Shown here: one piece after another, positions 1,442 through 58,702 of the stretch | Layout of the letters: each line of letters opens with the position of its first letter | Position numbering within the stretch: the first letter of the stretch is position 1 | Source of the DNA: an uncultured archaeon | GTDB taxonomy: Archaea; Iainarchaeota; Iainarchaeia; Iainarchaeales; GCA-2688035 | Assembly (NCBI GenBank): GCA_964354805.1 | Contig: CAYHBD010000009.1 | Span: 91,538-155,537 of the forward strand | DNA: 64,000 nt | Reading direction: 5' to 3' | Translations under genes and position numbers: made by a program | Notes under the pieces: generated by a model | The model's input: the letters and a program-made list of their open reading frames with translations, nothing else | Database searches by the model: none | What the model was told of the DNA's origin: nothing

Positions 1442-1467
1442 CCGGCAAAAATCTAAATTTTGGTGCT

Positions 1468-5873: not shown

Positions 5874-5955
5874 AACACAGGTTTTTGATACGGCAATAAT
5901 AAAAAAAGGCATTGGATAAGATTGGAAGCCAATAATTGAAAAAGGTGATGAAAAG

Positions 5956-6579: not shown

Positions 6580-6694
6580 ACCGCTTCAAGAAAATGATGT
6601 TGTATGATTTTAGGGGTTCTGATTTCTTGGCTGGCAGGCTGCAAGAGTTCAGGGGAAAGGGCTGTTTAAATATTTTTTTGGAGACTGTTTTGTT

Positions 6695-8786: not shown

Positions 8787-8802
8787 TGAAAAATGAACTG
8801 CC

Positions 8803-9441: not shown

Positions 9442-9542
9442 AATAATTAATGTTATTAGAAAGTAATTAAATTGTTTAATGGTAGAAGAATATTACAACA
9501 TTGACTTAAGAAGGCAAATAAAGTTGTTTGTGGTTAACGCTT

Positions 9543-9878
9543 TTAGGCGAGCGCTTTTACGGCTTGTTCCTCAAACCCAATTTTTTCCATTGATTTTTTC
9601 ATCAACTCGTTGTCCAATTCAATCAATTGTTTTACCACAGGGTTTTTGTTATTGAGCTTGAACATGCTTGCCTTGCCGACTTTTCTGGTGTAAGTTACTG
9701 TATTGGCTTTTTCCAACTTGCCCCAGAAGGTTTCCAATGTATTCCAGGAAACATTGGCATTCCTGCAAATGTCTTTCTTTGAGTAGTCAAATATGTCGTT
9801 CTCTATCAAGAAATCCAAGACCCTAATTATCGGGGAATCGCCAAAGAACAGCACAAACAAAGACTTGTCTTCAGCCAT
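9543..9878 (-). CDS. Small winged-helix DNA-binding protein (putative transcriptional regulator), divergent from the next gene
   Basis: 111 aa with a predicted wHTH (RVLDFLIENDIFDYSKKDICRNANVSWNTLETF). It lies in the AT-rich island, with an AT-rich divergent promoter region at 9879..10077. Confidence 0.45.
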   Translation of the reverse strand: MAEDKSLFVLFFGDSPIIRVLDFLIENDIFDYSKKDICRNANVSWNTLETFWGKLEKANTVTYTRKVGKASMFKLNNKNPVVKQLIELDNELMKKSMEKIGFEEQAVKALA

Positions 9879-26557: not shown

Positions 26558-26783
26558 AAAAAATCACCAAATAGATTATGTGAAAACACATATTTAAACA
26601 TATGCCCGGCGGCCGGGGCAAAAAGAAATAAAAAAAGAATTAATGAGGCGGGAAAAATTTATTTAAATTCTTTTTCTTTCCCTTAAAAAGGGGGTTGAAT
26701 ATCTTTCTTTGATTTATAAATTAATTGACAAAAGAAATATAACTATTTAACACCCTTTTAAATTATAACCAATTTTAACGGTT

Positions 26784-39640: not shown

Positions 39641-39843
39641 ATTGTCACCAAAAACAATTTTTAGTTTTCTCTCCAAATTCCAAAAAATCTCCTAAAAAAA
39701 TTTTAGTTTTCTTTCCAATTTCCCAAAAATCACCCAAAAAAAATTTTGATTCCACCTAATTTCCCAAAAATGCCAACCTCAAATTACCCCAAAAAAAAAT
39801 TTTAATTTCCACCCACTTCCAAAAAACCTTTTTCCCAAATCAC
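39641..39843 (-). repeat. Four degenerate tandem ~40-55 bp units between the secF stop and the secD start, each ending in a T7-T9 run (oligo-T terminator-like)
   Basis: Minus-strand units begin GGTGATTT(T)TGGGAAA... or GGGGTAATTTGAGG..., and each ends in AAAATTTTTTT(TT). Confidence 0.6.
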
Positions 39844-42199: not shown

Positions 42200-44353
42200 A
42201 TGAAACCCAACAGGGCGGTTTTTGCGATTGCCTTTGCAGCAGCATTCCTGCTCGCAAGCACAAATTGCTACAGCGTGCAACCTGAAAAAGTGTCTTTGGA
42301 GGGGGAAGATTTCATTTTCACTTTTTGGCCGATTTACATAAGCGGATGCACACAGCAAAAACTGGACGACCCTAACAGTATCGCGAGCAAAAGAATGCAG
42401 GGAATTGACACAATGATGGACCCTAGTATAGGAATGACCCATGCAGGCATACATTTCGTGGCCCTTCCCACTGATGAAAATCCATGTTTAACGAATCTTA
42501 AGAATATTAAAAAATACAAGCTGGCTTTAGAAATTAGCGCAGGGCATGGTAGATTAAATGAGGGGCGTACAGAATTAGCTGACATTAAGTGGCCAGCCGA
42601 GTATTTAAACACGGACAAGGGAAAGCAGTTTCTCAAGGCGCCCTGCCTGTGCAATAATTGCACTATCACTGAAGAGATTGCAAACAATTGGTCTGATTAC
42701 GTTGACAAAGAAAGGTGCGGGGATTGGAACAACAATCGTGCACTAGACCCTTCATATACCGGCATATTATGGCAGAATACTTTGAATAATACAAAGGATG
42801 TTGTAGCAAAGGCTCAGCCTGAAATTGTTTTATTTGACACTGAACTATGGCTTAGGCCAGGAGCCATAGACACGGATTTTTATGGGGATACTGATTGCCA
42901 GTGCATGCTTCTTCAAAAGGCCTTTGGATATGATGGATGCGGAACACAACCACCTTGCAACAGGTATGATTATTACCAAAAGAACCCGCTATGCTGCCAA
43001 TATGACCGCTATATTTCTGCCTGGAGGCAGCGCGGGCTTGAGCTGAAAGCGGCAGTTCAATCAGTTTCTTCAGCAAAAGTTTCTTTTTACGACGAAATTC
43101 CAGCAAATGGAAGAAGATATGTTCAGACCTATACCGGGGCGTACTGGGATAATTATGACACAATTGGAGCAATGCCAAGCGGCGTTAGCGACTACCCATC
43201 GCCTTATTTGTACATTGTTCCAAATTTAGAGGTTTTTGAAAAAAACACGCCCTATCTTTCTGGCACAGTCCCCTGGGTCAGCTATACTCACATGATGGGG
43301 TACAGCAATTTCAATGAGCAAAAAGCAGATGTGTACTTTGATCCAAGCGTGAGCAGGGAAGCCGGGCGAATGCTAAGGGAAGCTGGGGCAAAAGGGTTCA
43401 TAGTTTACCCAAACGGCCAAAACATGGAGGAAAGGACTGCTGGAGAGAAGTATTGGCAACACTATGGGAAACAGGGCTATGATTATTGGCTGGCGCATGC
43501 CAAGGAAATGATTGCAGGATTCAACGAAGAACCAACATATGTTGAGAAAAACAAGATTAGGAACAGTGATTTTGAGGCATTCAGGGCAGTAACTAAAGAA
43601 TATAAAAAGGGGGCGGGAATGTCCCATACTAGCAGCCAATTGGTTGGGCAAACACAGTTTGCGCCTGTTTTTTGGTTTTGGCAGGATTCAAGCCCAAATT
43701 ACAACGACATTAATAATGCGGCATTTAGCAATTTGGTTTATGATGACTCGCTGCAAGAATACCTTAAAGTCCCTGATGCTCAACCGTACAAGAATTTTGT
43801 TTTCGCCGATGTTAAGAGCGGAAGCGTTGCCTGGAAGCATTCAAGGAACGGCGAGCCAGGCAGCAGAACCATTTTGTCAAAAACATTCTCAATTGGGGCT
43901 GCTGAGGAAGGAAAGTATAAGTTTTCCATTTGGACAAAAGCAAGCCTTGATTCTGCTAACGGCAAAATTGAATTCTTTTTAGTGAACACAAGCACTTTGG
44001 CAGAGCAAAAACTCGGCGAAACAGGCTTTGAAACAAGCTGGAAAGAATTCAAAAAATATGCAAACATGGCAGTTGGAGACTACAACGTAAAAATACTAAT
44101 AAATGACCAAACAGGGCAAGCAATTGACATATTTCTTGACAAAGCATCGCTGGAAAAAGCGGGGGAAGAATGCGGAAACACAATATGCGAAGCAGGCGAA
44201 ACTGTCTCATGCCCGCAGGATTGCCAAGAATGCATTGATACGCCGAAATTAATAGGCTACATTAGCCAGTGGAAAAGGGGAGAAATAAGCATGCTCACGC
44301 TGATGCAAAAAATGAAGCAATATAAAGCAGGAACAGGATGTCCGACGCAGTAA
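42200..44353 (+). CDS. Secreted protein, family member B of the 'WKRGEI-tail' family
   Basis: Signal MKPNRAVFAIAFAAAFLLASTNC, a large divergent core, and C-terminus CGNTICEAGETVSCPQDCQECIDTPKLIGYISQWKRGEISMLTLMQKMKQYKAGTGCPTQ. Conserved upstream element at 42159..42199. Confidence 0.7.
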   Translation: MKPNRAVFAIAFAAAFLLASTNCYSVQPEKVSLEGEDFIFTFWPIYISGCTQQKLDDPNSIASKRMQGIDTMMDPSIGMTHAGIHFVALPTDENPCLTNLKNIKKYKLALEISAGHGRLNEGRTELADIKWPAEYLNTDKGKQFLKAPCLCNNCTITEEIANNWSDYVDKERCGDWNNNRALDPSYTGILWQNTLNNTKDVVAKAQPEIVLFDTELWLRPGAIDTDFYGDTDCQCMLLQKAFGYDGCGTQPPCNRYDYYQKNPLCCQYDRYISAWRQRGLELKAAVQSVSSAKVSFYDEIPANGRRYVQTYTGAYWDNYDTIGAMPSGVSDYPSPYLYIVPNLEVFEKNTPYLSGTVPWVSYTHMMGYSNFNEQKADVYFDPSVSREAGRMLREAGAKGFIVYPNGQNMEERTAGEKYWQHYGKQGYDYWLAHAKEMIAGFNEEPTYVEKNKIRNSDFEAFRAVTKEYKKGAGMSHTSSQLVGQTQFAPVFWFWQDSSPNYNDINNAAFSNLVYDDSLQEYLKVPDAQPYKNFVFADVKSGSVAWKHSRNGEPGSRTILSKTFSIGAAEEGKYKFSIWTKASLDSANGKIEFFLVNTSTLAEQKLGETGFETSWKEFKKYANMAVGDYNVKILINDQTGQAIDIFLDKASLEKAGEECGNTICEAGETVSCPQDCQECIDTPKLIGYISQWKRGEISMLTLMQKMKQYKAGTGCPTQ

Positions 44354-44378
44354 TAGCATCGCAGCATTTCAATCAATT

Positions 44379-44419
44379 AAATTTTTATTAAAGAAAGCAC
44401 TTATTCTAATTGATTAAAA
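44379..44419 (+). promoter_or_regulatory. Conserved family upstream element, copy C
   Basis: aaatttttattaaagaaagcacttattctaattgattaaaa then ATG. Confidence 0.55.
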
Positions 44420-45871
44420 ATGAAAAAAACAATCAGGGCAATTGCCATCTTTGCATTACTTTTGCTTGCAAGCACAAATGGCAGCAGCGCAAAAAATAAT
44501 ATTTACGGTAGCGGCATAGATACAAATGGCTTGATGCCAATCAATGTTGATGACACCAATGTTAGCTATCGTTTCAGGGCAGAGCATTCAGGGTTGCTTG
44601 AAAGCGTTGCATTTTACCTTGTAATCAACAAGCCGTTGTACACTCAGGGCGATGGCGGGCATTTGCTGGTTGAATTACGAACTGATGATGGCACTGGAAA
44701 TCATTTTCCGTCCAACGAAGTTTTAGCATCACACTATATTGATAAACCAATGGATGGGCGCAGTTATCCCGGTTCTTTTGTTCCTTTACCAGGCAACCCT
44801 TCACCCTGCACTGGCAGCTCGTGCGGCGCTGCTTTCCCAAAAATTCCTTTAAATGCACAAATTGAAGAAGGAAAGCTTTACCACATTGTTTTTTCCAATA
44901 CGCACGCAGACAGCAGGAATAATTGGATGTCCCTGAATCTGCTTTGGGCTGACAGCACACCAATGCAGCCCATGTTTGATGACCTTGATTTTGCACTCCT
45001 TTTTTACGACAACTTCCACAAAACATGGACAACCAATAGCGAAACTCTTAGGACCCCAATATTAAGCGTAGATTACGTTGGTGGCAATTCGCAAGGGCAA
45101 GGCTACATAGAAGCGTGGACAAATGGCTCTGTTGCTATTGCAGGCGATAACAAAGTAAGGGAAAGATTTACTGTAAGCGGCAAGGACAGGCAGATATCAA
45201 AGGCATTTGTCAAGGTGCAAAAACCAGCTGGAACAAATCCAGGGGATTTAACATTCAAACTACAAAAAGATGACGGCACCATTATTGAAGAAGGCAATGT
45301 TGCCTCAGCCAGCATTAGTGAAGGAAGAATGCAATGGGCAAGCTATAGCTTCCGAGAGAAACACACATTAAAAGCAGGGGAAACATATGCCCTTGTTCTT
45401 GAAGCCCCACCCGGTGACTCATATAGTACTTTTGCAATTAGGGAAGGGGGAGATGTTGGATTGAACGGGGGTTTATTCAAAGACGGCAATGCATACTATA
45501 GTGATGACGGTGGACAGAGCTGGAAGGTGATTAGATACAGCGGATTTGATTTACAATTCTATTTTGAATTATCCTGCCCAAACGGAAACTGTGAGGAAGG
45601 GGAAAATTGTTTAACTTGCCCGCAGGATTGCCCCATATGCCAGCCCCAATGCGGCAACGGCACAGCGGACACTGGGGAAAACTGCTCAAGCTGCCCTGCA
45701 GACGTGCAGTGCGAAACAGGACAAGAGTGCATAGAAGGAACATGCACAGCAACGGAATGCATTAGGGAACCAGAGCTGCTCGGCTACATCAGCCAGTGGA
45801 AAAGGGGCGAAATAAGCATGCTCACGCTAATGCAAAAAATGAAACTATGGAGCACCGGAACAGGATGCTAA
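44420..45871 (+). CDS. Secreted protein, family member C of the 'WKRGEI-tail' family
   Basis: Signal peptide, a Cys-rich region CPNGNCEEGENCLTCPQDC..., and C-terminus ECIREPELLGYISQWKRGEISMLTLMQKMKLWSTGTGC. Conserved upstream element at 44379..44419. Confidence 0.7.
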   Translation: MKKTIRAIAIFALLLLASTNGSSAKNNIYGSGIDTNGLMPINVDDTNVSYRFRAEHSGLLESVAFYLVINKPLYTQGDGGHLLVELRTDDGTGNHFPSNEVLASHYIDKPMDGRSYPGSFVPLPGNPSPCTGSSCGAAFPKIPLNAQIEEGKLYHIVFSNTHADSRNNWMSLNLLWADSTPMQPMFDDLDFALLFYDNFHKTWTTNSETLRTPILSVDYVGGNSQGQGYIEAWTNGSVAIAGDNKVRERFTVSGKDRQISKAFVKVQKPAGTNPGDLTFKLQKDDGTIIEEGNVASASISEGRMQWASYSFREKHTLKAGETYALVLEAPPGDSYSTFAIREGGDVGLNGGLFKDGNAYYSDDGGQSWKVIRYSGFDLQFYFELSCPNGNCEEGENCLTCPQDCPICQPQCGNGTADTGENCSSCPADVQCETGQECIEGTCTATECIREPELLGYISQWKRGEISMLTLMQKMKLWSTGTGC

Positions 45872-45964
45872 CGCCAGCATAGCGCAGGCAATGAAAAGCA
45901 GGTGAAGGCTGCCCAATATAAAAATGGCTGCAAGGGGAAAAAGAATTGCAAAAACTGGGGCATT

Positions 45965-46003
45965 AAATTTTTATTCAAGAAAGACCTACTCTAATTGATT
46001 AAA
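45965..46003 (+). promoter_or_regulatory. Conserved family upstream element, copy D (runs into the TTG start)
   Basis: aaatttttattcaagaaagacctactctaattgattaaa. Confidence 0.5.
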
Positions 46004-48025
46004 TTGAAATCCTGCATTAAAATTCCTGCAATCGCATTCCTTGCAATGCTGTTGATCGGGGCAGCATCAGCCCAAAAAATGAGGCATAAAGAGAAAAAGT
46101 TAATACAAGCGAATTTAGTGCTAGCAATTGGTATAGTTTCTTTACTGATTTTTTTTAGTTTGGGAAGTATTAGAGAGCCAGTTAAAGAAGGTTTAACGAG
46201 CTTTGCCGTATCAAGTTTTGATGAAGTTGTTCCCAATTGTGGCAATAATCTTTGCGAGAGTGGAGAAATTGCTGAAAGTTGTCCTGATGATTGCGATATA
46301 TGTTCTGAAGAAAAATGTGATGTGTATGCCCCTATTCAGCATAAGAAATATTTTAAGGCTGAAAAGGAAGTTTATGGTTATGACCCGCCTTTCCAACCAG
46401 CTCGAGTAACCTTTGACGCTAATAATAGGCCATATATCAGAAAGAATGACTGTAACACTACAAATGACTTCGCGTTTCGATGTTTTACAAATCAGCTAAT
46501 TATTCAAACCCTTAACAGCAGTGGAGAGTGGGAGTATTGGGATTTATCTAATATAGTAAAAACATACAAAGACCAAATGTTTAGATCCAGCACTCAAACA
46601 GATGAAAGAGTAATTATTGATTCTGACGGAGATATGTATCTTGCAGTTGAATACAATCTTGAACCTTCTCTGCTACTTTTATATTCAAATGATGAGGGTA
46701 AAAACTGGCAGAGTTATCCTATCCAAGGGGTGTCTATGAAGTTTGAACCATGGCCAGGGCGAAATACTCCATCAATTTTAATCACAAATCGTGATAATAA
46801 GGAATTATATTTTATTATACCCCAAAAATTATCAAATGGCACCTTAGATCTCTCCCATAAAATAAAATTATCAGATAATGCCTGGGAACCACTAAATCCT
46901 GGAGGGTATATGAGTTATTCTTTTAGTTATGGTGATCTAACTTTTTTTGTTTGGGCAGAATCAATTAGTTCTACTCCTAATGAAAACGGAACTCCATCTT
47001 ACATTGCCGTGTATAATAGGACAAGCAGATTGTTAAGTCAACCATATCATATTGGAAATGGTGGAACTTATAATGGGGGGACAGGACTCACTGAGCCCCA
47101 TAATCAACCAACCTTATGTTTGGATTCCAAAGGGTATATTCATGTTATCCTAGGAGGCCATAATGAGCAATTTAAATATTACAAATCAAAATATCCTTTA
47201 AATATCACAAAGTGGGAAGCACCCGTCTATCTTGGGGATCCAAATATTGATAATGTACAGAATAAACTAACTTATCCTGCACTACTTTGCGGAAAGGATG
47301 ATACTTTACATCTTGCTATGCGTTCAATAATTCCTACTTATAGTTTCACTTTATCTTATACAAGAAAAAAAACAGGTCAGGGTTGGGAAAAAATTAAGCC
47401 GCTTGTTTTACCATTCAGAGCCTATTATGGACACTGGTATCATCAACTGAACATGGATAATAATGGCGTATTGTACTTAAATTATTGGTATCTTGCAAAT
47501 AATTTATTTGATGATGAGCTTGAGGCTTATCAACAAAAGTGGCCAGACGAAGACATTAATCTTAGCGGAGCATACAAACCAACAAACAACACATATTGGT
47601 GGAATCTCTATCCACTATACCACAGTCCAGCGATGCTTGTTTCCTACGATAACGGAGATTCTTGGAAGCTCGCTGTTACAAGTGATTTTATAAAAGGAAT
47701 GAACAAAGAAATCTGCGGAAACCAGCAATGCGAAGCAGGCGAAACCTTTGAAAGCTGCCCAACAGACTGCAAATGCGGCAATAGCGCCTGCGAAGTAGGC
47801 GAAACTTTCACAACATGCCCGGCAGACTGCAAATGCGGCAATGCAACATGCGACGCAGGCGAAACATTCGAAACCTGCCCACGAGACTGCCCTCAAGAAT
47901 GCGTTGACAACGAAAAACTGGTAGGCTACTATATCCCCCAGTGGAAAAGGGGGGAAATAACCATGCTGACACTAATGCAGAAAATGAGGCAATGGAAAGC
48001 TGGAACAGGATGCCAGCCAGCATAG
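45995..48025 (+). CDS. Secreted protein, family member D: an N-terminal Cys mini-module, a BNR/propeller-like core, three C-terminal Cys mini-modules and the conserved tail; apparent TTG start
   Basis: Signal MIKLKSCIKIPAIAFLAMLL. C-terminus CGNQQCEAGETFESCPTDCKCGNSACEVGETFTTCPADCKCGNATCDAGETFETCPRDCPQECVDNEKLVGYYIPQWKRGEITMLTLMQKMRQWKAGTGCQPA. Confidence 0.7.
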   Translation: MIKLKSCIKIPAIAFLAMLLIGAASAQKMRHKEKKLIQANLVLAIGIVSLLIFFSLGSIREPVKEGLTSFAVSSFDEVVPNCGNNLCESGEIAESCPDDCDICSEEKCDVYAPIQHKKYFKAEKEVYGYDPPFQPARVTFDANNRPYIRKNDCNTTNDFAFRCFTNQLIIQTLNSSGEWEYWDLSNIVKTYKDQMFRSSTQTDERVIIDSDGDMYLAVEYNLEPSLLLLYSNDEGKNWQSYPIQGVSMKFEPWPGRNTPSILITNRDNKELYFIIPQKLSNGTLDLSHKIKLSDNAWEPLNPGGYMSYSFSYGDLTFFVWAESISSTPNENGTPSYIAVYNRTSRLLSQPYHIGNGGTYNGGTGLTEPHNQPTLCLDSKGYIHVILGGHNEQFKYYKSKYPLNITKWEAPVYLGDPNIDNVQNKLTYPALLCGKDDTLHLAMRSIIPTYSFTLSYTRKKTGQGWEKIKPLVLPFRAYYGHWYHQLNMDNNGVLYLNYWYLANNLFDDELEAYQQKWPDEDINLSGAYKPTNNTYWWNLYPLYHSPAMLVSYDNGDSWKLAVTSDFIKGMNKEICGNQQCEAGETFESCPTDCKCGNSACEVGETFTTCPADCKCGNATCDAGETFETCPRDCPQECVDNEKLVGYYIPQWKRGEITMLTLMQKMRQWKAGTGCQPA

Positions 48026-48108
48026 CGCAGGCAATGAAAAGCAGGTGAAGGCTGCCCAATATAAAAATGGCTGTAAAGGAGAAAAAGAATTGCAAAAATG
48101 GGAGCAGT

Positions 48109-48147
48109 AGATTTTTATTCGAAAAAGACATACTCTAATTGATTAAA
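48109..48147 (+). promoter_or_regulatory. Conserved family upstream element, copy E (runs into the TTG start)
   Basis: agatttttattcgaaaaagacatactctaattgattaaa. Confidence 0.5.
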
Positions 48148-50310
48148 TTGAAATCCTGCGCTAAAATTCTCGCAATCGCATTACTTGCAATGCTTTTGGC
48201 TGGAACAGCGGCGGCTGCCAACTGCATAGGCAACAAGTCTGGGAATCTTATAGTTAACGGAGACCTGGAGGCAGTCACCGCAGGCATTCCTGACTGCTGG
48301 TATAAAGAGGGCTGGGAAAAAGATGGGGTGGCGCTGCCAGGAAGGGATTTGAATTGGGTTAAGGACCCTATTACAGGCGGAGACCATGGAATGGTTTTGA
48401 AAACGCAGAACACAAGCAATGGATCAGGCACAGGGCTTGCATGGCAAAATCCAGTTGCCCCTGAGCTTGTAGAGCCAAACACCTGGTATGAGCTTTCCTT
48501 CTCTTATGCCACTGAAGGCATTGAACCACTGCTTGACACAGACGGCAACATGCTACAGGACAGCGTTTGGATTGGGGCAGGCGCTATAATATGGGACGGA
48601 AACTGGAATAAGATAGATAAAGTGGATTCGTTAATTTGGGCTCAGGACCTTGAATTGGACAAGTGGGATGACAGCGCATGGGTTTACAGGACATACAAAA
48701 AAACAGGGCTTAAGCCATGGAAAGACGTAAAAAAATATTTTAAGACCCCTGCTGTGGTTGGACATATATACATATTAACATACAATTATCCAAAAGGAAC
48801 AGCATATTTTGATAATTTCTCACTCAGGAAAATAGGTTACAATCCTAATGATGTTCCATTTAAAAAATCCGGGACACTGCGCTTCCTCCAGTTTAAGGAT
48901 GAGGATTTTTTCCCAATATTCCTGCACTCGTTTCCACAAAGAGGAGGGACAGATATTGGATTAAATGAGGTTAAAGAAAACGGATTCAACACAACAAACA
49001 GCTGGAACAAAACAAAAATCGAGGAGTTGGATCTGGCAAGCGCAATAGACCTGCCTGAAATCCACAAAGGCTCTCCTGATAATCTCTCATGGTACAATGA
49101 CCCTGGCCCTGGGAATTCAATTGCATACACTGGAAAGGCAGAAATTAAAACCAGAGTTTCCGAATGGAAAGATTTTGACAACCTTTTATTTTTTATAACC
49201 AGGAATGAAATTGAGTGCCACCCTGTCAGAGACGAGTCATTTGTGCCTGATTTAGAAACATACAAAAAAATCAGCGAATATGTCAGAGGCAATGGGGCAA
49301 AAATATTCTACGGGTTCTGCGGAAGCTATTACAATACCCCGGAAGCATATACTGGAAGCTATGATGACTTTGTAAATTATTACCATCCGCTTGCGGATAT
49401 TATAAGCCATACCGCAAACCTGCCGCCGGCATACCCAAGCGCATACAACGAACCTCAATTAGACAAGGTCGGCATATGGACAAGGACAGACCTTTCCAGG
49501 AGCCCCGAAAAATATTTTATTGCAAGAGGCTTCAGCAGAATGGACTGGGCAAACTGGGACAGGGCAAGGGAAGCAGATGGGAGTGTTCGCAGGTACGACA
49601 TATATGTACCGTTCAACCTGCAAAGGTTCCTTGTGTGGACCCAGATAATAAACGGCGCCACAGGGGCTGATTTTCTGTATACAAGCGCGATAAACCTAAC
49701 TGACAAAGACTATGCCAAATACTATGCCCACAGCTGGAAGCAGATAACCGCAATATCAAAAGAGCTCTCGGAATTATACCCTGTTCTTGTTGAACCCCAG
49801 TTCCTTGACGAGTGGCAGGTTTCCGATCCAAGAGTGGAGATAATGATGAAAAAGCATGATGAAAAGATTTACCTTTTTGCAGCAAGCACGCATTATGAGG
49901 ATTTGCTCAAGGAAACAATAACACTTGACAGCAAATACAACATAGCAAAAATAACGGCACTGAACGAAGTAATAAACGGGGATGTGGACAATCCCCCAAC
50001 TGACAGAAGCATTGAGCTAGCTTCACCAAACAGCTTTGTTGACGACTTTGTTGGAGACGACGGCTCGCACGCATCTGCAGCAAGCCCTGGATATGCTGTG
50101 CACATTTACGAGATTGAATTAAGCGCCTGCGGCAATGGCACATGCGATTCAGGCGAAACTGTCTCATGCCCGCAGGATTGCCAAGAATGCGTTGACACGC
50201 CGACATTAATGAACCAGTACATTCCCCAGTGGAAAAGAGGAGAAATAAGCATGCTAACACTAATGCAGAAAATAAGGCAACGGAACACAGGGGAAGGATG
50301 CCCGCAATAA
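48139..50310 (+). CDS. Secreted protein, family member E: CBM4/9-like N-terminal domain, a glycoside-hydrolase-like core, one Cys mini-module and the conserved tail
   Basis: Signal MIKLKSCAKILAIALLAMLL. NGDLEAVTAGIPDCWYKEGW (CBM-like). C-terminus CGNGTCDSGETVSCPQDCQECVDTPTLMNQYIPQWKRGEISMLTLMQKIRQRNTGEGCPQ. Confidence 0.7.
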   Translation: MIKLKSCAKILAIALLAMLLAGTAAAANCIGNKSGNLIVNGDLEAVTAGIPDCWYKEGWEKDGVALPGRDLNWVKDPITGGDHGMVLKTQNTSNGSGTGLAWQNPVAPELVEPNTWYELSFSYATEGIEPLLDTDGNMLQDSVWIGAGAIIWDGNWNKIDKVDSLIWAQDLELDKWDDSAWVYRTYKKTGLKPWKDVKKYFKTPAVVGHIYILTYNYPKGTAYFDNFSLRKIGYNPNDVPFKKSGTLRFLQFKDEDFFPIFLHSFPQRGGTDIGLNEVKENGFNTTNSWNKTKIEELDLASAIDLPEIHKGSPDNLSWYNDPGPGNSIAYTGKAEIKTRVSEWKDFDNLLFFITRNEIECHPVRDESFVPDLETYKKISEYVRGNGAKIFYGFCGSYYNTPEAYTGSYDDFVNYYHPLADIISHTANLPPAYPSAYNEPQLDKVGIWTRTDLSRSPEKYFIARGFSRMDWANWDRAREADGSVRRYDIYVPFNLQRFLVWTQIINGATGADFLYTSAINLTDKDYAKYYAHSWKQITAISKELSELYPVLVEPQFLDEWQVSDPRVEIMMKKHDEKIYLFAASTHYEDLLKETITLDSKYNIAKITALNEVINGDVDNPPTDRSIELASPNSFVDDFVGDDGSHASAASPGYAVHIYEIELSACGNGTCDSGETVSCPQDCQECVDTPTLMNQYIPQWKRGEISMLTLMQKIRQRNTGEGCPQ

Positions 50311-50805: not shown

Positions 50806-52308
50806 ATGCAGTTGGCTGAAGTAAAGGAAAAGGAAATAGTTGAATACGCTGGCAGCAAAGAAGCGCTAATTGATGAACAGGCGGTTAAGCTGCTTAGCGA
50901 AAGGCCTGATTTCAGGGAAATAATTGACAGTCTGCTCAGTGAGGGAACGTTCATCATTGACAGGAAAGCGGTTGAGAAAAAAATCCTGAAGCCGAAAACA
51001 GGTATTGCAGCAAAAGAAGAAGCGGTTGTAGAAAAAAGCAGGTTCAAGCCGCATGCGAAAGAAATAACCGCGAATTTCAAAATCCTGCCCCAGCTTGACA
51101 TAACAGGACAGAGCAAAACGTATGGTACGGCAAAGGATTTCCTGCACTATTTCCAGAGAAAATTCGAATTGCTTTCAGAAATGCTGAAAAAAAGGCACAC
51201 GCTCAGCCCAAAGCCGCTCAACAGGCTGAAAGCAGTTCCCAAAGGCAGCGCTGTTGACGTAATAGGCATGGTTTTCAAAAAGTGGGTTACAAAAAACGGG
51301 CATGTTGCACTGCAGCTGGAGGATTTGGAAGCAAAATGCATTGCCCTTGTGCTAAAGGATGAGCTTGCCTTGACAGCTGCAGTAGAGCACATAATCATTG
51401 ACGACGTGATTGCAGTAAAGGCAGTGAAATGGCAGGAGGGAATGCTGATTATAAAGGAAATAATCAGGCCTGATTTGCCAGTGAGGGAGAACAGGAAAGC
51501 AGAGCAGAATGTTTCAATTGCGAGCATAAGCGACATGCATGTTGGAAGCAAGCTTTTTCTGGAAAAGCCTTTCCAGAATTTCCTGGAATGGCTGAATGGA
51601 AGGGCTGAAAACAAAAAAGAGCAGGAAAAGGTAAGCAAAATAAAGTATTTGATTGTAACAGGAGACAATGTTGATGGGTGTGGCGTTTACCCAAACCAAT
51701 TCAGCGAACTGAACATAAAGGACATCTACCAGCAATACAAGGAATTCAGCAAATTCATTATGCAGGTACCGGAATACATTGAAGTATTCATTATTCCGGG
51801 GCAGCACGATGCAGTAAGATGGGCTGACCCACAGCCTGCAATCCCGAAAGAATTTGCCCCTGAACTGCATGCCCTGCCCAATGTCCATTTCCTCGGCAGC
51901 CCAAGCTGGGTTTCAATCGAAGGAATGCTCACAATGCTTTACCACGGGGGGGCATTGCACGAATTGATTGCTTCACTCAGCTTCCTAAACAGCGAACACC
52001 CGGAAGAAGCAATGATTGAAGTTCTAAGAAGAAGGGACCTTATGACAGGATATGGCCACAAGCAGCCTTATGTTCCGGAAAAAGAGGACCTGCTTGTAAT
52101 AAGGGAGCCCCCGGACCTGATTTACATTGGAGACATGCACCACAACGCTTACGGAAACTACAGGGGAACAACAATAATAAACAGCGGGACATGGCAGGCA
52201 AGAACAAGCTACCAGGTAAAGCTTGGTCACATCCCAACGCCGTGCATTGCGCCGGTGCTGAATCTCGCAACAGGAAAAATAACGGAAAATCACTTCATGC
52301 AGCAGTAG
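50806..52308 (+). CDS. dp1: DNA polymerase II (PolD) small subunit DP1, a calcineurin-like phosphoesterase/exonuclease
   Basis: ISDMHVGS, VTGDNVDG, GQHD, and GDMHHNAY metallophosphatase motifs, with an N-terminal OB-like region. Confidence 0.9.
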   Translation: MQLAEVKEKEIVEYAGSKEALIDEQAVKLLSERPDFREIIDSLLSEGTFIIDRKAVEKKILKPKTGIAAKEEAVVEKSRFKPHAKEITANFKILPQLDITGQSKTYGTAKDFLHYFQRKFELLSEMLKKRHTLSPKPLNRLKAVPKGSAVDVIGMVFKKWVTKNGHVALQLEDLEAKCIALVLKDELALTAAVEHIIIDDVIAVKAVKWQEGMLIIKEIIRPDLPVRENRKAEQNVSIASISDMHVGSKLFLEKPFQNFLEWLNGRAENKKEQEKVSKIKYLIVTGDNVDGCGVYPNQFSELNIKDIYQQYKEFSKFIMQVPEYIEVFIIPGQHDAVRWADPQPAIPKEFAPELHALPNVHFLGSPSWVSIEGMLTMLYHGGALHELIASLSFLNSEHPEEAMIEVLRRRDLMTGYGHKQPYVPEKEDLLVIREPPDLIYIGDMHHNAYGNYRGTTIINSGTWQARTSYQVKLGHIPTPCIAPVLNLATGKITENHFMQQ

Positions 52309-52428: not shown

Positions 52429-55400
52429 GTGATAATTATGCCGATAAAAATTGACATTGATGCAAGTAGTGCGGTTAAGAGCTACTATGATTCAGTTGCA
52501 GCTGAAGTGGAAAAACAGCTTTCCGTTGCAGCAGAGGCAAAGTCAAGGGGCTTTGATGTAAGCACTGCAATCGAAACAAAGCCTGTGGCAGACCTTGCCG
52601 ACAGGACTGAAACAATTATCGGGCCGCCGGGAATTGCAAAAAGGTACAGGGAAGTGTTTGAGGAAAAGAATGGAAACAGGATGGATGCAATATTCCAAAT
52701 ATTCAAGGAAATAATCGACCAGCAGTGGTGCAAGATTGTGGACGACCAGAAAAGGATTGAACAGGCAATCAAAACATGCCTTGTTTTGAATACCGAGGGC
52801 GTTGTTGTTGCACCGCTTGACGGGGTGCCTGAAATAAAAATAAGCAGAAACCCTGATGGAAGCAAATACATCGATGTTTACTACGCAGGCCCGATAAGGG
52901 CAGCAGGCGGAACATCAGCAGTATTGCCGCTTATTTTAGGGGATTACGCAAAGCAGTTGCTCGGTCTGGACAGGTTCAAGCCGACAGAGGATGAAGTGGA
53001 GAGATATGTTGAAGAATGCCAGATTTATGAAGAGATTGTAAGCAGGCAGTACAGGCTGAGCGAGGCTGAAGTGAAAAAAATAATTAGGGGCTGCACTGTG
53101 TGCATCAACGGCGAACCAACGGAAGAAAGGGAAGTGGCAGTGCACAGGAACCTGCCGAGAATTGAAAGCAACAGGATAAGGGGCGGAATGTGCCTTGTGA
53201 TAAGCGAAGGCGTTGCACTAAAAGCGCCGAAGATTCTGCAGTTTTCGAAACAGCTTGGATTGGACTGGAGCTGGCTTGAAGGAATAATAAAGGTGGGAAA
53301 AAGCGAAAGCGGCGAGAGAAAAATTGAGCCGAACGAAAAGTTTTTGGAGGGCACAGCAGCTGGAAGGCCGATCTTCTGCTATCCTGAGCGAATCGGGGGC
53401 TTCAGGCTGCGCTACGGCAAAGCAAGAAACACCGGGATAATGGGGAAAGGGATTCACCCTGCAACAATGTTTCTGCTGGATGAATTTGTTGCTGTTGCAA
53501 CACAGCTGAAAGTGGAAAGGCCTGGAAAAGCAGCAGGAATTTTCCCGGTTGATTCTATTGAAGGGCCGATAGTAAAGCTGCTGAACGGCTACGTTGTGAA
53601 AGTAAACAGCCTGCAGCAGGCAATTGAATTGAAACAGAAAATTGCCCAGATTCTTTTCTTGGGTGACATTCTTGTAAGCGTTGGCGATTTTCGGCACAGC
53701 GCCCATCCATTGGTGCCAGCCGGCTATTGTAGTGAATGGTGGGCAAAGGAACTGCAAAGGCAGCTGCGAAAAATCCCTGTGGAAAAAGAGCAGTTCGAGG
53801 AAATAATTGCAAAGCCGGAAAATGTAAGCATTGAACAGGCAATTGAATTGAGCGAAAAATTCAATGCGCCGCTGCACCCGAACGCGCTGTATTACTATGA
53901 CGCTTTGAACAAAAATGAATTAATTCAATTAATTAGTTTCTTGCAGAAAGCTGAAACAACCAAAGAAGGCAAAAAAATTTCCGCGATTGAATTGCCAAAA
54001 CAAGGAGCGGAAAAACAACTGCTTGAAAAAATTGGTTTGCCACACAAGGTTGAGGGCGACAAAATAATAATTGACGCAGATAATGCCCTTGCTTTAACCA
54101 AAACACTTGCCTTGCAGAAAAGCAGCCCTGAAATTGCAGGCATAATAGAAAAATCCGCTGATGTAATTGACGCATTGAACAATTTAAGCGGCCTTGTGAT
54201 TAGAGACCTTTGCGGAACATTTGTCGGAAGCAGGATGGGCAGGCCTGAGGCAAGCAGGCCGAGGAAAATGATCGGAAACCCAAACGTGCTTTTCCCAATA
54301 GGCTTGCACGGTGGCAACATCAGGAGCGTCAACAAGGCAATGGCAAGTGAAACAGAGGGCAGCCCAGGCAAAATACTGGTTGAAATAGCTTTATTCAAAT
54401 GCCCGGAATGCAGGCAGGTAAGGGAGCAGCCATTCTGCCCTGCATGCGGCAAAAGAGCTGAAAAAATAAACCAGTGCCCGAACTGCGGCAGCATTTCTGC
54501 AACGGAAAAATGCGCAAAATGCGGCAAGATGACATCGCCTTTCTCAAAAAGGGAGATTGACCTAGGCCTTACAATGCAACAGGCAGCACAGAACCTTGGC
54601 ATAAAAGTGCCTGAACTTGTAAAAGGAGTAAAAGGGACAATAAACAAGGACAGAGTAACCGAACCCCTGGAAAAAGGACTGCTGAGAGCAAAGCACGACA
54701 TGCATGTTTTCAGGGACGCGACAATAAGGTATGAGCTGATAAATGCGCCCTTAACGCACTTCACTGCAGCAGAGATTGGAATAAGCATTGCCAAGCTGCG
54801 CGAATTAGGCTACAGTAAGGACAGTGAAGGAAAGGAATTGGAAAAGAACGGGCAATTGGTCGAATTAATGCCCCAGGACATAATAATCCACGAGCAGGCA
54901 GGCGAATTCTTTGCAAAAGAAACAAAATTCATAGACGAACTGCTGCAGCGCTTCTACAAAATACAGCCATACTTCAACGTAAACAAAAAAGAAGATTTGG
55001 TGGGGCAACTGCTGCTTGGGCTAGCACCCCACACAAGCGCGGCAATAGTCGGCAGGGTGATTGGCTTCACAAAAGCAAGATGCTGCTTTGCCCACCCATT
55101 CTTCCACCAGACAAAGAGGCGAAACATAGACGGAGACCAGGATTCACTGCTTCTGCTTATGGATGCCCTGCTGAATTTCTCGCATTCGTATCTGCCGAGC
55201 AGCAGGGGAGGCAGAATGGATGCACCGCTCGTTTTCACCATTGCCTTGAAACCAACAGAAATAGATGATGAGTGCTATCAAATGGAGAAATGCAGCAGCT
55301 ATCCGCTTGAATTGTATGAAATGGCCCAGAAAATAATGCCGGCTGATGTAAGCGGCATTGAAAGAGTGAAAGACAGCCTTGGCAAGCAAAGCCAGTATGA

Positions 55401-55875
55401 CGGATTCGAGTGCACGCATTCAACAAGCCAGTTTGATGCCGGTCCTACAACAAGCAGATATGTTACGCTTGGCACAATGGAGGAAAAGCTGAGGGCGCAG
55501 GCAAAACTGCAGTTCAAAATCGCGGCATGCGAAGGAAAAGACGCCATGGAAAGAGTGATGGTATCGCACCTTTTGCCTGACATAATCGGAAACACCAGGG
55601 CATTCAGCAGGCAGCAGTTTCGCTGCACTGCATGCAACGCAAAAATGAGGAGGATTCCGCTTGACGGAAAATGCATTCAGTGCGGAAAACCCAGCGTCAT
55701 TCTGACAATAGCGCAGGGCAGCGTGCGAAAATACCTGCTGATAGCGAAAGCGCTTGCGGAAGAATACCAGCTAAGCGATTACCTGAAGCAGAGGCTTGAA
55801 TTAGCCGGCAGGGAAATAGACAGCATATTCCAAAACGAGCAAAAAGAGCAAAAAAAGCTGGCGGAATTTGTTTAA
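52429..55875 (+). CDS. dp2: DNA polymerase II (PolD) large subunit DP2, no intein
   Basis: 1148 aa. CPECRQ...CPACG and CPNCG...CAKCG zinc modules, and the conserved DP2 catalytic core with C-terminal Cys clusters (CTACNA...CIQCG). Confidence 0.9.
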   Translation: MIIMPIKIDIDASSAVKSYYDSVAAEVEKQLSVAAEAKSRGFDVSTAIETKPVADLADRTETIIGPPGIAKRYREVFEEKNGNRMDAIFQIFKEIIDQQWCKIVDDQKRIEQAIKTCLVLNTEGVVVAPLDGVPEIKISRNPDGSKYIDVYYAGPIRAAGGTSAVLPLILGDYAKQLLGLDRFKPTEDEVERYVEECQIYEEIVSRQYRLSEAEVKKIIRGCTVCINGEPTEEREVAVHRNLPRIESNRIRGGMCLVISEGVALKAPKILQFSKQLGLDWSWLEGIIKVGKSESGERKIEPNEKFLEGTAAGRPIFCYPERIGGFRLRYGKARNTGIMGKGIHPATMFLLDEFVAVATQLKVERPGKAAGIFPVDSIEGPIVKLLNGYVVKVNSLQQAIELKQKIAQILFLGDILVSVGDFRHSAHPLVPAGYCSEWWAKELQRQLRKIPVEKEQFEEIIAKPENVSIEQAIELSEKFNAPLHPNALYYYDALNKNELIQLISFLQKAETTKEGKKISAIELPKQGAEKQLLEKIGLPHKVEGDKIIIDADNALALTKTLALQKSSPEIAGIIEKSADVIDALNNLSGLVIRDLCGTFVGSRMGRPEASRPRKMIGNPNVLFPIGLHGGNIRSVNKAMASETEGSPGKILVEIALFKCPECRQVREQPFCPACGKRAEKINQCPNCGSISATEKCAKCGKMTSPFSKREIDLGLTMQQAAQNLGIKVPELVKGVKGTINKDRVTEPLEKGLLRAKHDMHVFRDATIRYELINAPLTHFTAAEIGISIAKLRELGYSKDSEGKELEKNGQLVELMPQDIIIHEQAGEFFAKETKFIDELLQRFYKIQPYFNVNKKEDLVGQLLLGLAPHTSAAIVGRVIGFTKARCCFAHPFFHQTKRRNIDGDQDSLLLLMDALLNFSHSYLPSSRGGRMDAPLVFTIALKPTEIDDECYQMEKCSSYPLELYEMAQKIMPADVSGIERVKDSLGKQSQYDGFECTHSTSQFDAGPTTSRYVTLGTMEEKLRAQAKLQFKIAACEGKDAMERVMVSHLLPDIIGNTRAFSRQQFRCTACNAKMRRIPLDGKCIQCGKPSVILTIAQGSVRKYLLIAKALAEEYQLSDYLKQRLELAGREIDSIFQNEQKEQKKLAEFV

Positions 55876-56250: not shown

Positions 56251-56362
56251 TTATTCTCCCATCAATTCCTTTTCCAAAACAGCCCTGAGTTTTTTTGTGC
56301 CGAAGGTTTTATTCTCCCATCAGCTCTTTTTCCAGCACAGCTCTTAATTTTTTCGCATCGAA
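56251..56362 (-). repeat. Duplicate of the orc1/cdc6 3' end (17 codons plus stop) immediately downstream of the gene
   Basis: Gene FDAKKLRAVLEKELMGE-stop versus copy FGTKKLRAVLEKELMGE-stop. 12 nt differences in 54 nt, 8 of them synonymous. Similarity ends exactly at the stop codons. Confidence 0.8.
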
Positions 56363-57634
56363 CCCGAGCTTTATGAGCGTGGTTGCTCCCCTTACTCCTT
56401 TTCCGCTTGCTGTTGTCAAAAGCAGCCCGTATGTGTCCAATTCATTGATGTATTCCCTGAACCATCTGCTGCTTACAACGCTTTCGTTCAGGGAGAGAGC
56501 AATGCGCTTGTATTCGTTGTAGATGTCACCGCTGCAGAAAACGCCTTCCTCGCTTTGGCCTGAACCTGTTATTCTCTGCATTCCTTTTCCCTGTGTTGTG
56601 AGCAGGGAAATCGCGTACAACACCAGCTGCTGCTGCTTTGGCAGGGTTGCAACCATGTTAAGGATGATTTCCTGTTCAACGCTTGTCTTTGCCTTTCTTA
56701 CCATGACATCAGTTACCTCGCTGAATTGCATTTTGTCCGCCTCTTCTCCGGCTCTAAGAAGCAGCATTATTGCTGTTCTTGCATCCCCTGTTTCCTGCGC
56801 TGCGATTGCGGATGCGAGGTTGATTGCGCTGCTGCTTACAGCGCCGGGCCTGAATGCCTTTGCAATCCTTTCCTGTAGGATTGCCTTGAGCTCTTCAGCG
56901 TTGTAAGGCGGGAAAACCATTTCTTTTTCCAAGAGTGCGCTTTTTGTTCTTGCATCAAGGCGCTCTTTGAAGAAAAGGTTGTTGCTTATTCCAAGGATGC
57001 TGATGCTACCGAATGGCAGCTCGTCGTTTGCCCTTGTAAGCGAGTAAACCAGTTCGTCCAAATCCTTGGCTTTGTCTATTTCATCCAGCACAATGATGAG
57101 GTTCTTTCCTTTTTCAGATGCCGCCTGCAGCAGTTTTTCGAACACAAAGGAAGCGCTGTATCCAATGAAGTCCTCTTTTGGATGGAATTTCTGCATTGCC
57201 TTGAGCAGAACCTTATATTTGCTGTTGTGGTTTCTGCAGTTAACGAAAGCGAAGTCAACTGGCGAATTGCTTTGCTCAATGAATTGCTGCAATTGCTGCA
57301 ATACGTGCTTTACAGTGACTGTTTTTCCTGTTCCGACTTTTCCGTAAATGAAAACATTGTCTGCTTTTTTCCCCTGCAGAGTTGCAGCAAGCGCTGTGCT
57401 GATTTGCTCGATCTGCTTTTGCCTGAATGGCAGGGCATCAGGGACATAGTGCGGGGAAATAATGTTTTTATCCAGAAAAACAGTGTGCTTTGTGATAAAC
57501 TGCTGGAAAATGTTCTGCTGCGGAAATGTTTCGTCCTGTAGTGAAACAATTTTTTTCTGCTGCAGCAATGTTTCGTTCTGCGCTGAAACAATTTTCTGCC
57601 CCAGTCCCACCAATGTCTGCTGTGCCACACCCAT
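56309..57634 (-). CDS. cdc6: Orc1/Cdc6 replication initiator (AAA+ and winged helix); the N-terminus contains an in-frame tandem 14-aa repeat and the true start is possibly internal
   Basis: FIYGKVGTGKTVTV Walker A, IVLDEID Walker B, a sensor region, and a C-terminal wHTH. An AT-rich candidate origin lies immediately upstream (57635..57980). Confidence 0.85.
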   Translation of the reverse strand: MGVAQQTLVGLGQKIVSAQNETLLQQKKIVSLQDETFPQQNIFQQFITKHTVFLDKNIISPHYVPDALPFRQKQIEQISTALAATLQGKKADNVFIYGKVGTGKTVTVKHVLQQLQQFIEQSNSPVDFAFVNCRNHNSKYKVLLKAMQKFHPKEDFIGYSASFVFEKLLQAASEKGKNLIIVLDEIDKAKDLDELVYSLTRANDELPFGSISILGISNNLFFKERLDARTKSALLEKEMVFPPYNAEELKAILQERIAKAFRPGAVSSSAINLASAIAAQETGDARTAIMLLLRAGEEADKMQFSEVTDVMVRKAKTSVEQEIILNMVATLPKQQQLVLYAISLLTTQGKGMQRITGSGQSEEGVFCSGDIYNEYKRIALSLNESVVSSRWFREYINELDTYGLLLTTASGKGVRGATTLIKLGFDAKKLRAVLEKELMGE

Positions 57635-57980
57635 TTGAACCCCGCCTGATTGTTGATTTGTTCAAAAAACAATTGAACCAAAAAAATCCCTTAAATTTTT
57701 TCCTTTTAAAAGGTTTAATTCAATTGAAAAAATCGCTTTTTATTTTTTAAATGAATTTAAGAAATTGGGAGCATAATATTATTGGCTGTTGTTTTAAAAA
57801 AAGGGAGGGCTTTCAAAAGCAAACCATCCTGCTGCCAAAAATTTGCTTTCCTTACCGAAAAAAATTATTTTTCCGCAGCAAATTGTTATGTAGGATTGCA
57901 GAATACTATTTAAAAAAGTGTTTGTAAGGGAAATACTATAACTAAAATTATTTAAAAAAAACCGGGGGTGTAGTAATTTT
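57635..57980. other. Candidate replication origin (oriC): a ~345-bp AT-rich intergenic region directly upstream of orc1/cdc6, next to polD DP1/DP2
   Basis: The window's longest AT-rich non-coding stretch, with inverted repeats (ttgttcaaaaaacaattgaacc; caattgaa) and G-strings (aaaaaagggaggg; ccgggggtg) reminiscent of ORB/mini-ORB elements. The oriC-cdc6-polD gene order matches Pyrococcus-type origins. Confidence 0.45.
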
Positions 57981-58340
57981 ATGGCTCTTTTGGAAAAAGT
58001 CCTAAAAAAATCAGACGCGCTTGACATGGAGGACTTCCTGAACAACTTGGACAAGGAAGACGAAACAATGTACGAGGACGCCGACGCTTTTGTTAAGCCA
58101 TTCACTCTTGCGGCAGACGCCGACGCGGACATTGTCATAAACGAGGCAAAAGCCGGAAACATTGTCCTGCTGAATATCGGCGATTTAAGCAAGAGAAACG
58201 CGATAAAACTGAAGGAAATGGTTTCAAAAATAAGAGACGGCGTATACTCAATGAACGGAGACATAGCAAGAATAAGCCAAGACAGGGTCCTGATAACGCC
58301 AACCAGAGTAAAAATAGTTAAAAAGAGAGGGGCCCAGTAA
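57981..58340 (+). CDS. sepF: SepF-like cell division protein (DUF552)
   Basis: 119 aa. ...ADADIVINEAKAGNIVLLNIGDLSKRNAIKLKEMVSKIRDGVYSMNGDIARISQDRVLITP matches the SepF core fold signature. Confidence 0.6.
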   Translation: MALLEKVLKKSDALDMEDFLNNLDKEDETMYEDADAFVKPFTLAADADADIVINEAKAGNIVLLNIGDLSKRNAIKLKEMVSKIRDGVYSMNGDIARISQDRVLITPTRVKIVKKRGAQ

Positions 58341-58390: not shown

Positions 58391-58702
58391 ATGGTACTGC
58401 AAACCCCCTCATTTTCTATTTCAGAAAAAGCACCTGAGCCTACGGCAGAATCGCCCGAGAGAAAAAAAGGCAGCATTGAAATAATAAAAGAAACACTGCA
58501 AGAGCTCAAACAGCCAAGCGCCTGGCTGCGCTACACAAAAGAAATCGCCGCAGGCGTGGCAGGCAAAGCTGTTGCGCAAGGAAAAAAAGGCAGCAAGGGA
58601 GAAAAAAAGCACTTCTGGCAACTGCTGCAAAAACCCAGCTTCTGGATAACAATTGCGCTGCTGATTATTCTGGCAATAGTGCTTGCATGGATTTATTTAT
58701 AA
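58391..58702 (+). CDS. Hypothetical tail-anchored membrane protein
   Basis: Soluble charged N-terminus and a single C-terminal TM (FWITIALLIILAIVLAWIYL). The track's minus-strand U32-like ORF (58665..59483) overlaps its 3' end by ~38 nt, but that ORF's N-terminus is uncertain. Confidence 0.3.
   Translation: MVLQTPSFSISEKAPEPTAESPERKKGSIEIIKETLQELKQPSAWLRYTKEIAAGVAGKAVAQGKKGSKGEKKHFWQLLQKPSFWITIALLIILAIVLAWIYL

Follow-up and report, generated by a model that had tools for sequence, protein, structure and literature searches.

Does the AT-rich DNA that separates orc1/cdc6 from sepF in an uncultured archaeon of the Iainarchaeota serve as a replication origin (oriC), or does it control the two genes that flank it? 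We addressed this question in a window of 64,000 nucleotides (nt) taken from contig CAYHBD010000009.1 (assembly GCA_964354805.1), in which the sepF-orc1 spacer occupies positions 57635-57980. The spacer is 346 nt long, contains no credible open reading frame (ORF) and has a GC content of 0.283 compared with 0.438 for the window. The original prediction had proposed it as a candidate oriC. Of this proposal, an AT-rich spacer upstream of an Orc1-1-type gene was borne out, but none of the origin-specific cues found support. We favor the reading that the spacer is a shared control region for the back-to-back sepF and orc1 genes, and hold with modest confidence that this control is the whole story.

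To assess conservation, the spacer was compared between the window and its closest relatives, L111 (Orc1 94% identical) and L081 (91%), and aligned across thirteen loci with Orc1 proteins 65-94% identical; nine of these loci form the subset A3. This analysis revealed 90-92% spacer identity among the window, L111 and L081, compared with 68-75% at the four-fold sites of orc1 and sepF. The spacer is therefore functional and under purifying selection. An ordinary AT-rich intergenic spacer, with palindromes and G-runs arising by chance, would account for the single motifs of the original prediction, which were at or near chance level and not conserved. However, the spacer lies 15-25 percentage points above four-fold-site conservation and its blocks are invariant across Orc1 proteins that are merely 65% identical, and we consider a chance origin of these features very improbable.

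The alignments resolved two conserved modules, one on the sepF side and one on the orc1 side, joined by a variable segment of about 10-110 nt with species-specific hairpins. The orc1-proximal module (about 105 nt, counted in alignment columns) contained a single 1-nt indel across the 13 loci, and its invariant blocks were box A, box B, the T/A box and ATAATAnTTAyrCTCCCAA. In L121 the variable segment carries a 1.5-kb IS605 OrfB/TnpB (Cas12f-like) insertion (1354-3000), which separates the sepF TATA box from the ACATAA block; despite this insertion, box A, box B and the orc1 promoter remain intact beside orc1. The variable intermodule length and the tolerated insertion fit two autonomous promoters. 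The two genes and the features between them, with pyrimidine-purine abbreviated Py-Pu, Shine-Dalgarno SD and transcription factor B recognition element BRE, are as follows.

56309-57634, minus strand: orc1/cdc6 coding sequence, 441 amino acids (aa); Pfam Cdc6_lid, Cdc6_C (winged helix) and AAA_16/22.
57640-57646, minus strand: orc1 SD-like GGCGGGG, 5 nt before the ATG at 57634; AGGTGGG precedes TTG/ATG in L117-L121.
57649-57803, no strand: extreme AT-rich stretch, GC at most 0.20 per 100 nt; putative 5' leader of orc1 and sole plausible unwinding element.
57765-57783, minus strand: block AATAATATTATGCTCCCAA, AT-rich proximal element and Py-Pu initiator; near-invariant columns in 13 loci.
57792-57802, minus strand: T/A box TTTTTTTAAAA; invariant TTTT-AA columns in alignment A5, with the geometry of other TTTAAATA promoters in the window.
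57803-57809, plus strand: GGGAGGG, non-conserved, where a BRE would sit in the putative orc1 promoter.
57811-57826, minus strand: box B TGGTTTGCTTTTGAAA, with GGTTTGCTTTykmAA as clade consensus; conserved in 13 loci, the T/A box following 24 nt downstream.
57828-57883, no strand: inverted repeat around box A, arms at about 57828-57842 and 57869-57883, in the variable intermodule spacer.
57841-57857, minus strand: box A GGTAAGGAAAGCAAATT, clade consensus GGTAwGGAAAsCAAAtT; 13 loci, fixed spacing.
57885-57894, minus strand: block CCTACATAAC, conserved, toward orc1 from the sepF TATA box at a distance of about 23 nt; in L121 the IS605 insertion leaves it on the orc1 side.
57907-57917, plus strand: putative sepF TATA box TATTTAAAAAA with flanking conserved ACAAAC; invariant columns in A3.
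57933-57942, plus strand: block ATACTATAAC, conserved, about 25 nt from the TATA box; putative sepF proximal element and start site.
57964-57970, plus strand: sepF SD GGGGGTG, 10 nt before the ATG; the CGGGGGTG of the original prediction.
57981-58340, plus strand: sepF coding sequence, 119 aa; Pfam SepF 4.7e-12.

On the orc1 side, the Py-Pu step lies 25 nt downstream of the centre of the T/A box, and transcription of orc1 is predicted to start at about 57772. This distance and the distance from box B to the T/A box match archaeal promoter geometry, and TTTAAATA boxes are also found 25-35 nt upstream of other gene starts in the window. The TTTTTTTAAAA element is a putative TATA box for orc1, or alternatively an oligo-T terminator. 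The orc1 module would thus be composed of box A, box B, the T/A box, a Py-Pu initiator and an AT-rich leader (about 137 nt) bearing a separate SD. The AT-rich stretch is about 135 nt long in the window, L111 and L081, with about 80 extra nt exclusive to this trio, and in L117-L121 the initiator block is separated from the SD by about 50-60 nt. Comparison of L114 (3961-4270) with L115 (371-739), which encode identical Orc1 proteins, identified a 59-nt tandem duplication that includes the orc1 SD and first codons.

The sepF module would consist of a TATA-like box, an AT-rich proximal/initiator block and a leader of about 40 nt carrying the SD GGGGGTG. As judged from sequence, each of the two genes has a TATA-like box about 25 nt before a Py-Pu step, at a conserved position, followed by a leader with an SD. 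Likeness to archaeal BRE/TATA/initiator promoters is seen in these T/A boxes about 25 nt before Py-Pu blocks and in the conserved boxes just upstream. On the other strand, ACACCCCC is invariant and lies 8-12 nt from the sepF CAT in the nine loci of A3, with CACCCCC in L117-L120 and CACTCCC in L121 among the remaining relatives; GGGGGTG/GGTGA-type sites also precede other window genes, for example at 41087 and 4646. The fixed distance to start codons and the occurrence of the same motif before other genes identify CGGGGGTG, present at 57963 and conserved, as the sepF SD and not the origin G-string it had been taken for. The second G-string, GGGAGGG, is present at 57803 but did not persist in relatives that are 91-94% identical: it reads GGGTGCGC in L111 and L081 (GCGCACCC on the minus strand), and the site is A/T-rich in L112-L116.

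Boxes A and B most likely bind a protein that regulates orc1 transcription. Box A lies 31-32 nt upstream of box B, equal to three helical turns, which places both on the same face of the DNA. Each occurs once in the 64 kb (box A at 0 mismatches), and each is single in the loci of the relatives except for a string encoding VRKAK; the two share an inverted AAAGCAAA/TTTGCTTT core. In the proposed mechanism, a protein bound to boxes A and B would control transcription of orc1, and sepF would be controlled separately. The binder is plausibly Orc1 itself, in an autoregulatory arrangement. In five euryarchaeal control loci (L067, L080, L073, L076 and L077), the best-scoring upstream origin recognition box (ORB) is 40-103 nt away from where the orc1 match begins. 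At Sulfolobus oriC1, Orc1 is said to regulate its own gene through an ORB that overlaps the cdc6 promoter, an observation that reportedly goes back to Robinson et al. in 2004; boxes A and B differ in that they do not match the ORB sequence. Some more distant Iainarchaeota carry GCGGAAkTGGTTTAnTTCC just upstream of the orc1 T/A box, with TGGTTT in common with box B, which suggests that the position of a putative operator may be conserved. The exceptional string, a second box A inside orc1 (GGTAAGAAAGGCAAAG at 56687-56702, minus strand), encodes VRKAK and is present only in the subclade with that peptide; it was set aside as probably coincidental.

The same boxes could instead belong to an oriC fused to the orc1 and sepF promoters, with A and B acting as non-canonical Orc1 boxes and 57649-57803 as the unwinding element for loading of MCM; we regard this as possible but doubtful. 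The spacer is directly upstream of the sole orc1 in the window, and the nearest euryarchaeal relatives of this gene all carry upstream ORB clusters. We examined the ORB/mini-ORB core TTCCAsTGGAA, in which TTCC and GAA are invariant (PMC1904270), using loci recovered by the same homology search as positive controls. The Thermococcus loci L067 and L080 contained 15-17 TTCCAsTGGAAA sites, both upstream of orc1 and within dp1, and the Methanosarcinales and Methanocellales loci contained clusters no farther than about 600 nt upstream, in which the motif is extended to ..GGAAAyararGGGGT. No match to the core was detected in 56-58.4 kb at up to 3 mismatches. A position-specific scoring matrix (PSSM) built from 36 control ORBs gave a best score of 6.6 bits in the spacer, compared with 16-23 bits in the controls, and 10% of equal-sized windows scored as well. 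Box B scored +0.9 bits. Box A, considered as a degenerate mini-ORB (TGGAAAC), scored -10 bits and was rejected as such. Two weak matches within DP1 of the window (12.4 and 11.7 bits) were at background level. The formal ORB/mini-ORB search that the original prediction had called for thus found no Orc-binding-like repeats within the 64 kb.

The weight of this result depends on the lineage. In the 450 nt upstream of orc1, 9/13 euryarchaeal controls but only 1/103 DPANN loci contained an ORB scoring 12 bits or more. As DPANN archaea as a class lack canonical ORBs at this position (102/103 loci), their absence here says little and is weak evidence against this spacer in particular. Either DPANN Orc1 reads a different box, or DPANN origins are not adjacent to orc1. 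In favor of an oriC at this spacer are the two unique boxes with conserved helical phasing and a common inverted AAAGCAAA/TTTGCTTT core, and purifying selection over the whole spacer. However, an oriC built on these boxes would have no repeated motif: the boxes are single-copy, occupy the same side of the AT-rich stretch and are unlike the ORB PSSM, and the inverted core does not behave as a paired site across relatives. Families of repeats in the spacer (best 10-12-mer, de novo) were not above dinucleotide shuffles (P = 0.17-0.40).

Of the cues named in the original prediction, AT-richness exceeded chance. The AT-rich non-coding region directly upstream of minus-strand orc1 was confirmed and holds the most AT-rich stretch of the 64 kb, a point in favor of an oriC; 57649-57803 contains the lowest-GC 100-150 nt, with a minimum of 0.18, and 0.008% of 100-nt windows are equally low. 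This stretch is, however, long in the three closest genomes only. It contains an inverted repeat (57658-57678), CAATTG at 57670 and 57721, and the palindrome TTCAATTGAA (57719-57728). The inverted repeat TTGTTCAAAAAACAATTGAAC is present at 57658 as described, but its GTTCAA/TTGAAC arms are broken without compensation in both close relatives, with a right arm of TTGAAT in L111 and arms of ATTCAA and TTGGGC in L081. CAATTG is likewise present; its two copies in the spacer are unremarkable, since the window holds 69 copies (about 19 expected). TTCAATTGAA was not enriched at up to 1 mismatch. The number of perfect 6-bp stems in the spacer was marginally raised (7 compared with 2.2 in shuffles, P about 0.03).

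Two other positions in the window were considered as origins and rejected. The alternative spacer at 26.3-26.8 kb is mostly a small ORF resembling a ribbon-helix-helix protein (judged by eye from the sequence) plus a promoter, and contains no ORBs; another divergent promoter spacer (26618-26779) ranks second in the window for AT-richness. At 39.65-39.83 kb, tandem repeats without ORBs separate the co-directional genes secF and secD. In this secF-secD spacer (39652-39832) there are four tandem units of about 42-56 nt, GGTGA-T5-GGGAAATTGGAAAGAAAAC-TAAAA-T7 on the minus strand, which look like repeated SD/leader or terminator units.

Strand asymmetry was analyzed across the 64-kb window. Where the original prediction required a GC-skew minimum at the spacer, none was present, and a local maximum or plateau was found instead. 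Raw cumulative GC skew climbs from the left end of the window until about 57-59 kb, then levels off, and tracks gene orientation; 73% of coding bases in the 57 kb left of the spacer are on the plus strand, that is, directed toward the spacer. Left of the spacer, third-position A-T skew in the sense direction was +0.19 in plus-strand genes (n = 33) and -0.09 in minus-strand genes (n = 13; P about 0.001), and from these opposite values it follows that the plus strand is rich in A regardless of how the genes are oriented. The plus-strand component measured at four-fold sites was +0.127+/-0.017 (left) and +0.142+/-0.057 (right) for AT, and +0.070+/-0.021 (left) and +0.167+/-0.059 (right) for GC. 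The sign reversal expected at an origin or terminus was not seen across the spacer, in either four-fold-site asymmetry or gene orientation. Throughout the 64 kb, four-fold sites on the plus strand are enriched in A and G (AT +0.13, GC +0.07). The window appears to lie within one replichore, and we infer replication as the cause of the asymmetry. Taken together, the skew and ORB results fall, within the 64 kb, on the side that the original prediction had named as refuting, and they lower the case for an origin at this spacer.

Several points nevertheless weigh against control as the whole story. The promoter geometry was read from sequence alone, and the spacer does hold the most AT-rich 150 nt of the window. 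Conserved, phased boxes beside an AT-rich stretch would also be expected of a minimal origin with lineage-specific ORBs, and one stretch of DNA could serve as control region and origin at once. Genes of the Orc1-1 type usually sit at origins (PMC3914693), and this spacer lies next to such a gene, with nearest euryarchaeal homologues that are linked to origins with ORB clusters. In Ca. Forterrea multitransposorum (Diapherotrites, complete genome), cumulative GC skew and Z-curve analysis located an origin beside cdc6 (Probst and Banfield 2018, PMC5905446), so that the prior for an orc1-adjacent origin stays substantial. The two systems are alike in belonging to the same phylum-level lineage and in the proposed position beside cdc6; they differ in that the Forterrea origin rests on a whole-genome skew switch, whereas asymmetry in the window keeps its sign across the orc1-sepF spacer. 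The gene-level likelihood ratio of 170-760 in favor of no switch is of limited reach because only 6 kb (five or six genes) lies to the right of the spacer. Finally, a cross-locus switch test that excluded orc1, sepF, DP1 and DP2 and was unweighted gave 22 loci with the same and 14 with the opposite asymmetry, and the controls showed no switch either. A first version of this test, which returned 'no switch' for 53/67 DPANN loci, was probably driven by large syntenic genes and was not relied on.

The conserved core could also encode an RNA. A small noncoding RNA gene at about 57795-57894 on the minus strand, running from CCTACATAAC through boxes A and B to the T-run, where it would terminate, and divergent from the sepF TATA box, would explain why a quasi-symmetric TATA box is found about 23 nt from the conserved ACATAA block, with a conserved T-run at the opposite end, and why the variable part is occupied by species-specific hairpins of differing sequence. 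In the closest trio, a 15-bp stem with one compensatory change encloses box A. The inverted repeat at 57828-57883 forms a duplex of -17.6 kcal/mol that was matched by 0/200 shuffles; the helix reads TGCTGC/GCAGCA, and TGCCGC/GCGGCA in L081, a paired T>C / A>G change. Across the trio this helix has energies of -15 to -17.6 kcal/mol, with at most 1% of shuffles as good. This covarying helix, noticed by eye, was rejected, as outside the trio pairing was no better than that of shuffled or cross-species partners. No Rfam match to the spacer was identified at the gathering threshold or at E<=10, no transfer RNA was found in it, and RNAalifold returned 0 consensus pairs for the 13 sequences. Changes in the inverted core of boxes A and B are uncompensated, and in L121 the IS605 insertion splits the supposed promoter from the body, which is still conserved. 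A structured RNA in the conserved core is unlikely, an unstructured transcript is conceivable, and we consider a noncoding RNA gene at this position improbable.

The pairing of sepF with orc1 is widespread in DPANN archaea. Divergent, adjacent sepF and orc1 genes were found in 23/37 Iainarchaeota-type loci (13 more have the two within 5 kb) and in 17/50 Micrarchaeota-type loci, compared with 0/12 euryarchaeal controls; the divergent pair is also present in the Altiarchaeales locus L061. The main survey of SepF describes the context of archaeal sepF as variable and does not mention orc1 (PMC8178401). In most DPANN relatives the sepF-orc1 gap is 65-200 nt. The sepF-orc1 spacers of sister lineages (65-160 nt) are too short for an origin with an unwinding element between two ORBs, a further point against an oriC. 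Most DPANN loci have no non-coding gap of at least 200 nt within 3 kb of orc1; in most euryarchaeal controls such a gap, of 240-760 nt, lies directly upstream. Two loci under bacterial names were recovered: L001 (JAFCBY010000063.1, 'Candidatus Falkowbacteria bacterium') carries archaeal orc1, sepF and PolD DP2, and L079 (JAJPHT010000007.1, 'Proteobacteria bacterium') carries archaeal orc1 and a canonical ORB. Both are evidently mis-binned archaeal contigs.

The Thermococcales oriC-cdc6-polD arrangement with ORBs and mini-ORBs (Matsunaga et al. 2007, PMC1904270; Cossu et al. 2015, PMC4640148) was used as a comparison system. The window resembles it in having an AT-rich non-coding region upstream of a single Orc1-1-type gene with PolD genes close by. 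The gene calls for sepF across the spacer and for DP1 and DP2 nearby were upheld by Pfam, and the two PolD subunit genes are as follows.

50806-52308, plus strand: PolD DP1 (small subunit); Pfam DNA_pol_E_B.
52429-55875, plus strand: PolD DP2 (large subunit), 1148 aa; Pfam PolC_DP2_N/central/cat.

The order is DP1, DP2, orc1, spacer, sepF, with DP1 and DP2 pointing toward orc1, orc1 pointing back toward them and sepF pointing away from the spacer. The suggestion that this neighborhood mirrors that of Pyrococcus was accurate in that PolD genes lie alongside orc1; in contrast to the co-directional oriC-cdc6-dp1-dp2 of Thermococcales, however, orc1 of the window is convergent with polD and divergent from sepF, and it is sepF that the spacer faces. 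The spacer is also shorter (346 nt compared with 0.8-1.5 kb) and contains no ORB sites, compared with 15-17 in L067 and L080. PolD genes are near orc1 in 24/37 Iainarchaeota-type loci, in two different arrangements.

By tblastn, orc1 is present as a single copy in the window, and the nearest named homologues of its product are Cdc6 proteins of Candidatus Diapherotrites, Iainarchaeum or 'archaeon', which assigns the window to a DPANN archaeon. The protein has an N-terminal Q-rich extension encoded by in-frame 21/42-nt tandem repeats (57513-57604, minus strand) that are coding and lie outside the spacer. Two 42-nt copies are present in the window and in L111 and four 21-nt copies in L081 (about 960-1040), and homologues that are at most 79% identical are without the extension. 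At 76-85% DNA identity, it is far more variable than the adjoining non-coding spacer (90-92%). The 42-nt repeats were considered as origin boxes in a mis-called ORF. This reading was rejected because the short homologues begin at a homologous SD and start codon and because copy number shifts by multiples of 21 nt, which identifies the repeats as a coding insertion.

Other observations concern the surrounding genes. Directly downstream of orc1, 56251-56304 is a 54-nt copy (78% identical) of the orc1 3' end including its stop (56309-56362), which looks like a rearrangement scar between orc1 and DP2; in L111, additional genes are inserted at the corresponding orc1-DP2 position. ATGCCGATAAAATTGGA occurs three times (52318, 52385 and 52438) across the region of the DP1 stop and DP2 start, and the true start of DP2 is probably the ATG at 52438 rather than the called GTG at 52429, with its first codons duplicated upstream. 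DP2 of L111, the 94% relative (5582-9658), carries an intein (Intein_splicing, LAGLIDADG) in the catalytic domain, and DP2 of the window has none. Downstream of sepF, a 103-aa ORF (58391-58702) is what is left, at residues about 185-248, of a gene for 256-266 aa found after sepF in L111 and L112; the window genome has a deletion of about 420 nt. Further left, the paralogous large gene pairs 42200/44420 and 45995/48139 (region 42200-50310) have near-identical upstream leaders, and genes at 30.6-32.4 kb and 46-48 kb have Cys-rich 60-nt repeat units in common (32138-32257 and 47729-47908).

As a control region, the spacer is of an ordinary, well-conserved kind in a new lineage, and interest in it rests on where and how DPANN archaea begin replication. 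Origins in these archaea are assumed rather than mapped; 208 Nanobdellota genomes, for example, were rotated to orc1 without an origin test (bioRxiv 10.64898/2026.05.13.725050). Here the assumption of an orc1-adjacent origin meets a locus without the usual sequence signatures, as canonical ORBs are absent from this spacer and from 102/103 related loci. It is unlikely, in our assessment, that boxes A and B are a lineage-specific replacement for the ORB in DPANN archaea, which as a group would have given up TTCCAsTGGAAA, and that the spacer is a minimal origin of about 250-350 bp within a bidirectional promoter. If this were true, one Orc1-bound site would license replication and co-regulate orc1 and the FtsZ-anchor gene sepF, a hard-wired coupling of replication and division across the Iainarchaeota and part of the Micrarchaeota. 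If boxes A and B are Orc1 sites, they would represent a new recognition element that ties replication initiation to sepF expression; if they are not, the true origin would lie elsewhere, and orc1-based rotation and origin-distance analyses in DPANN archaea would need checking.

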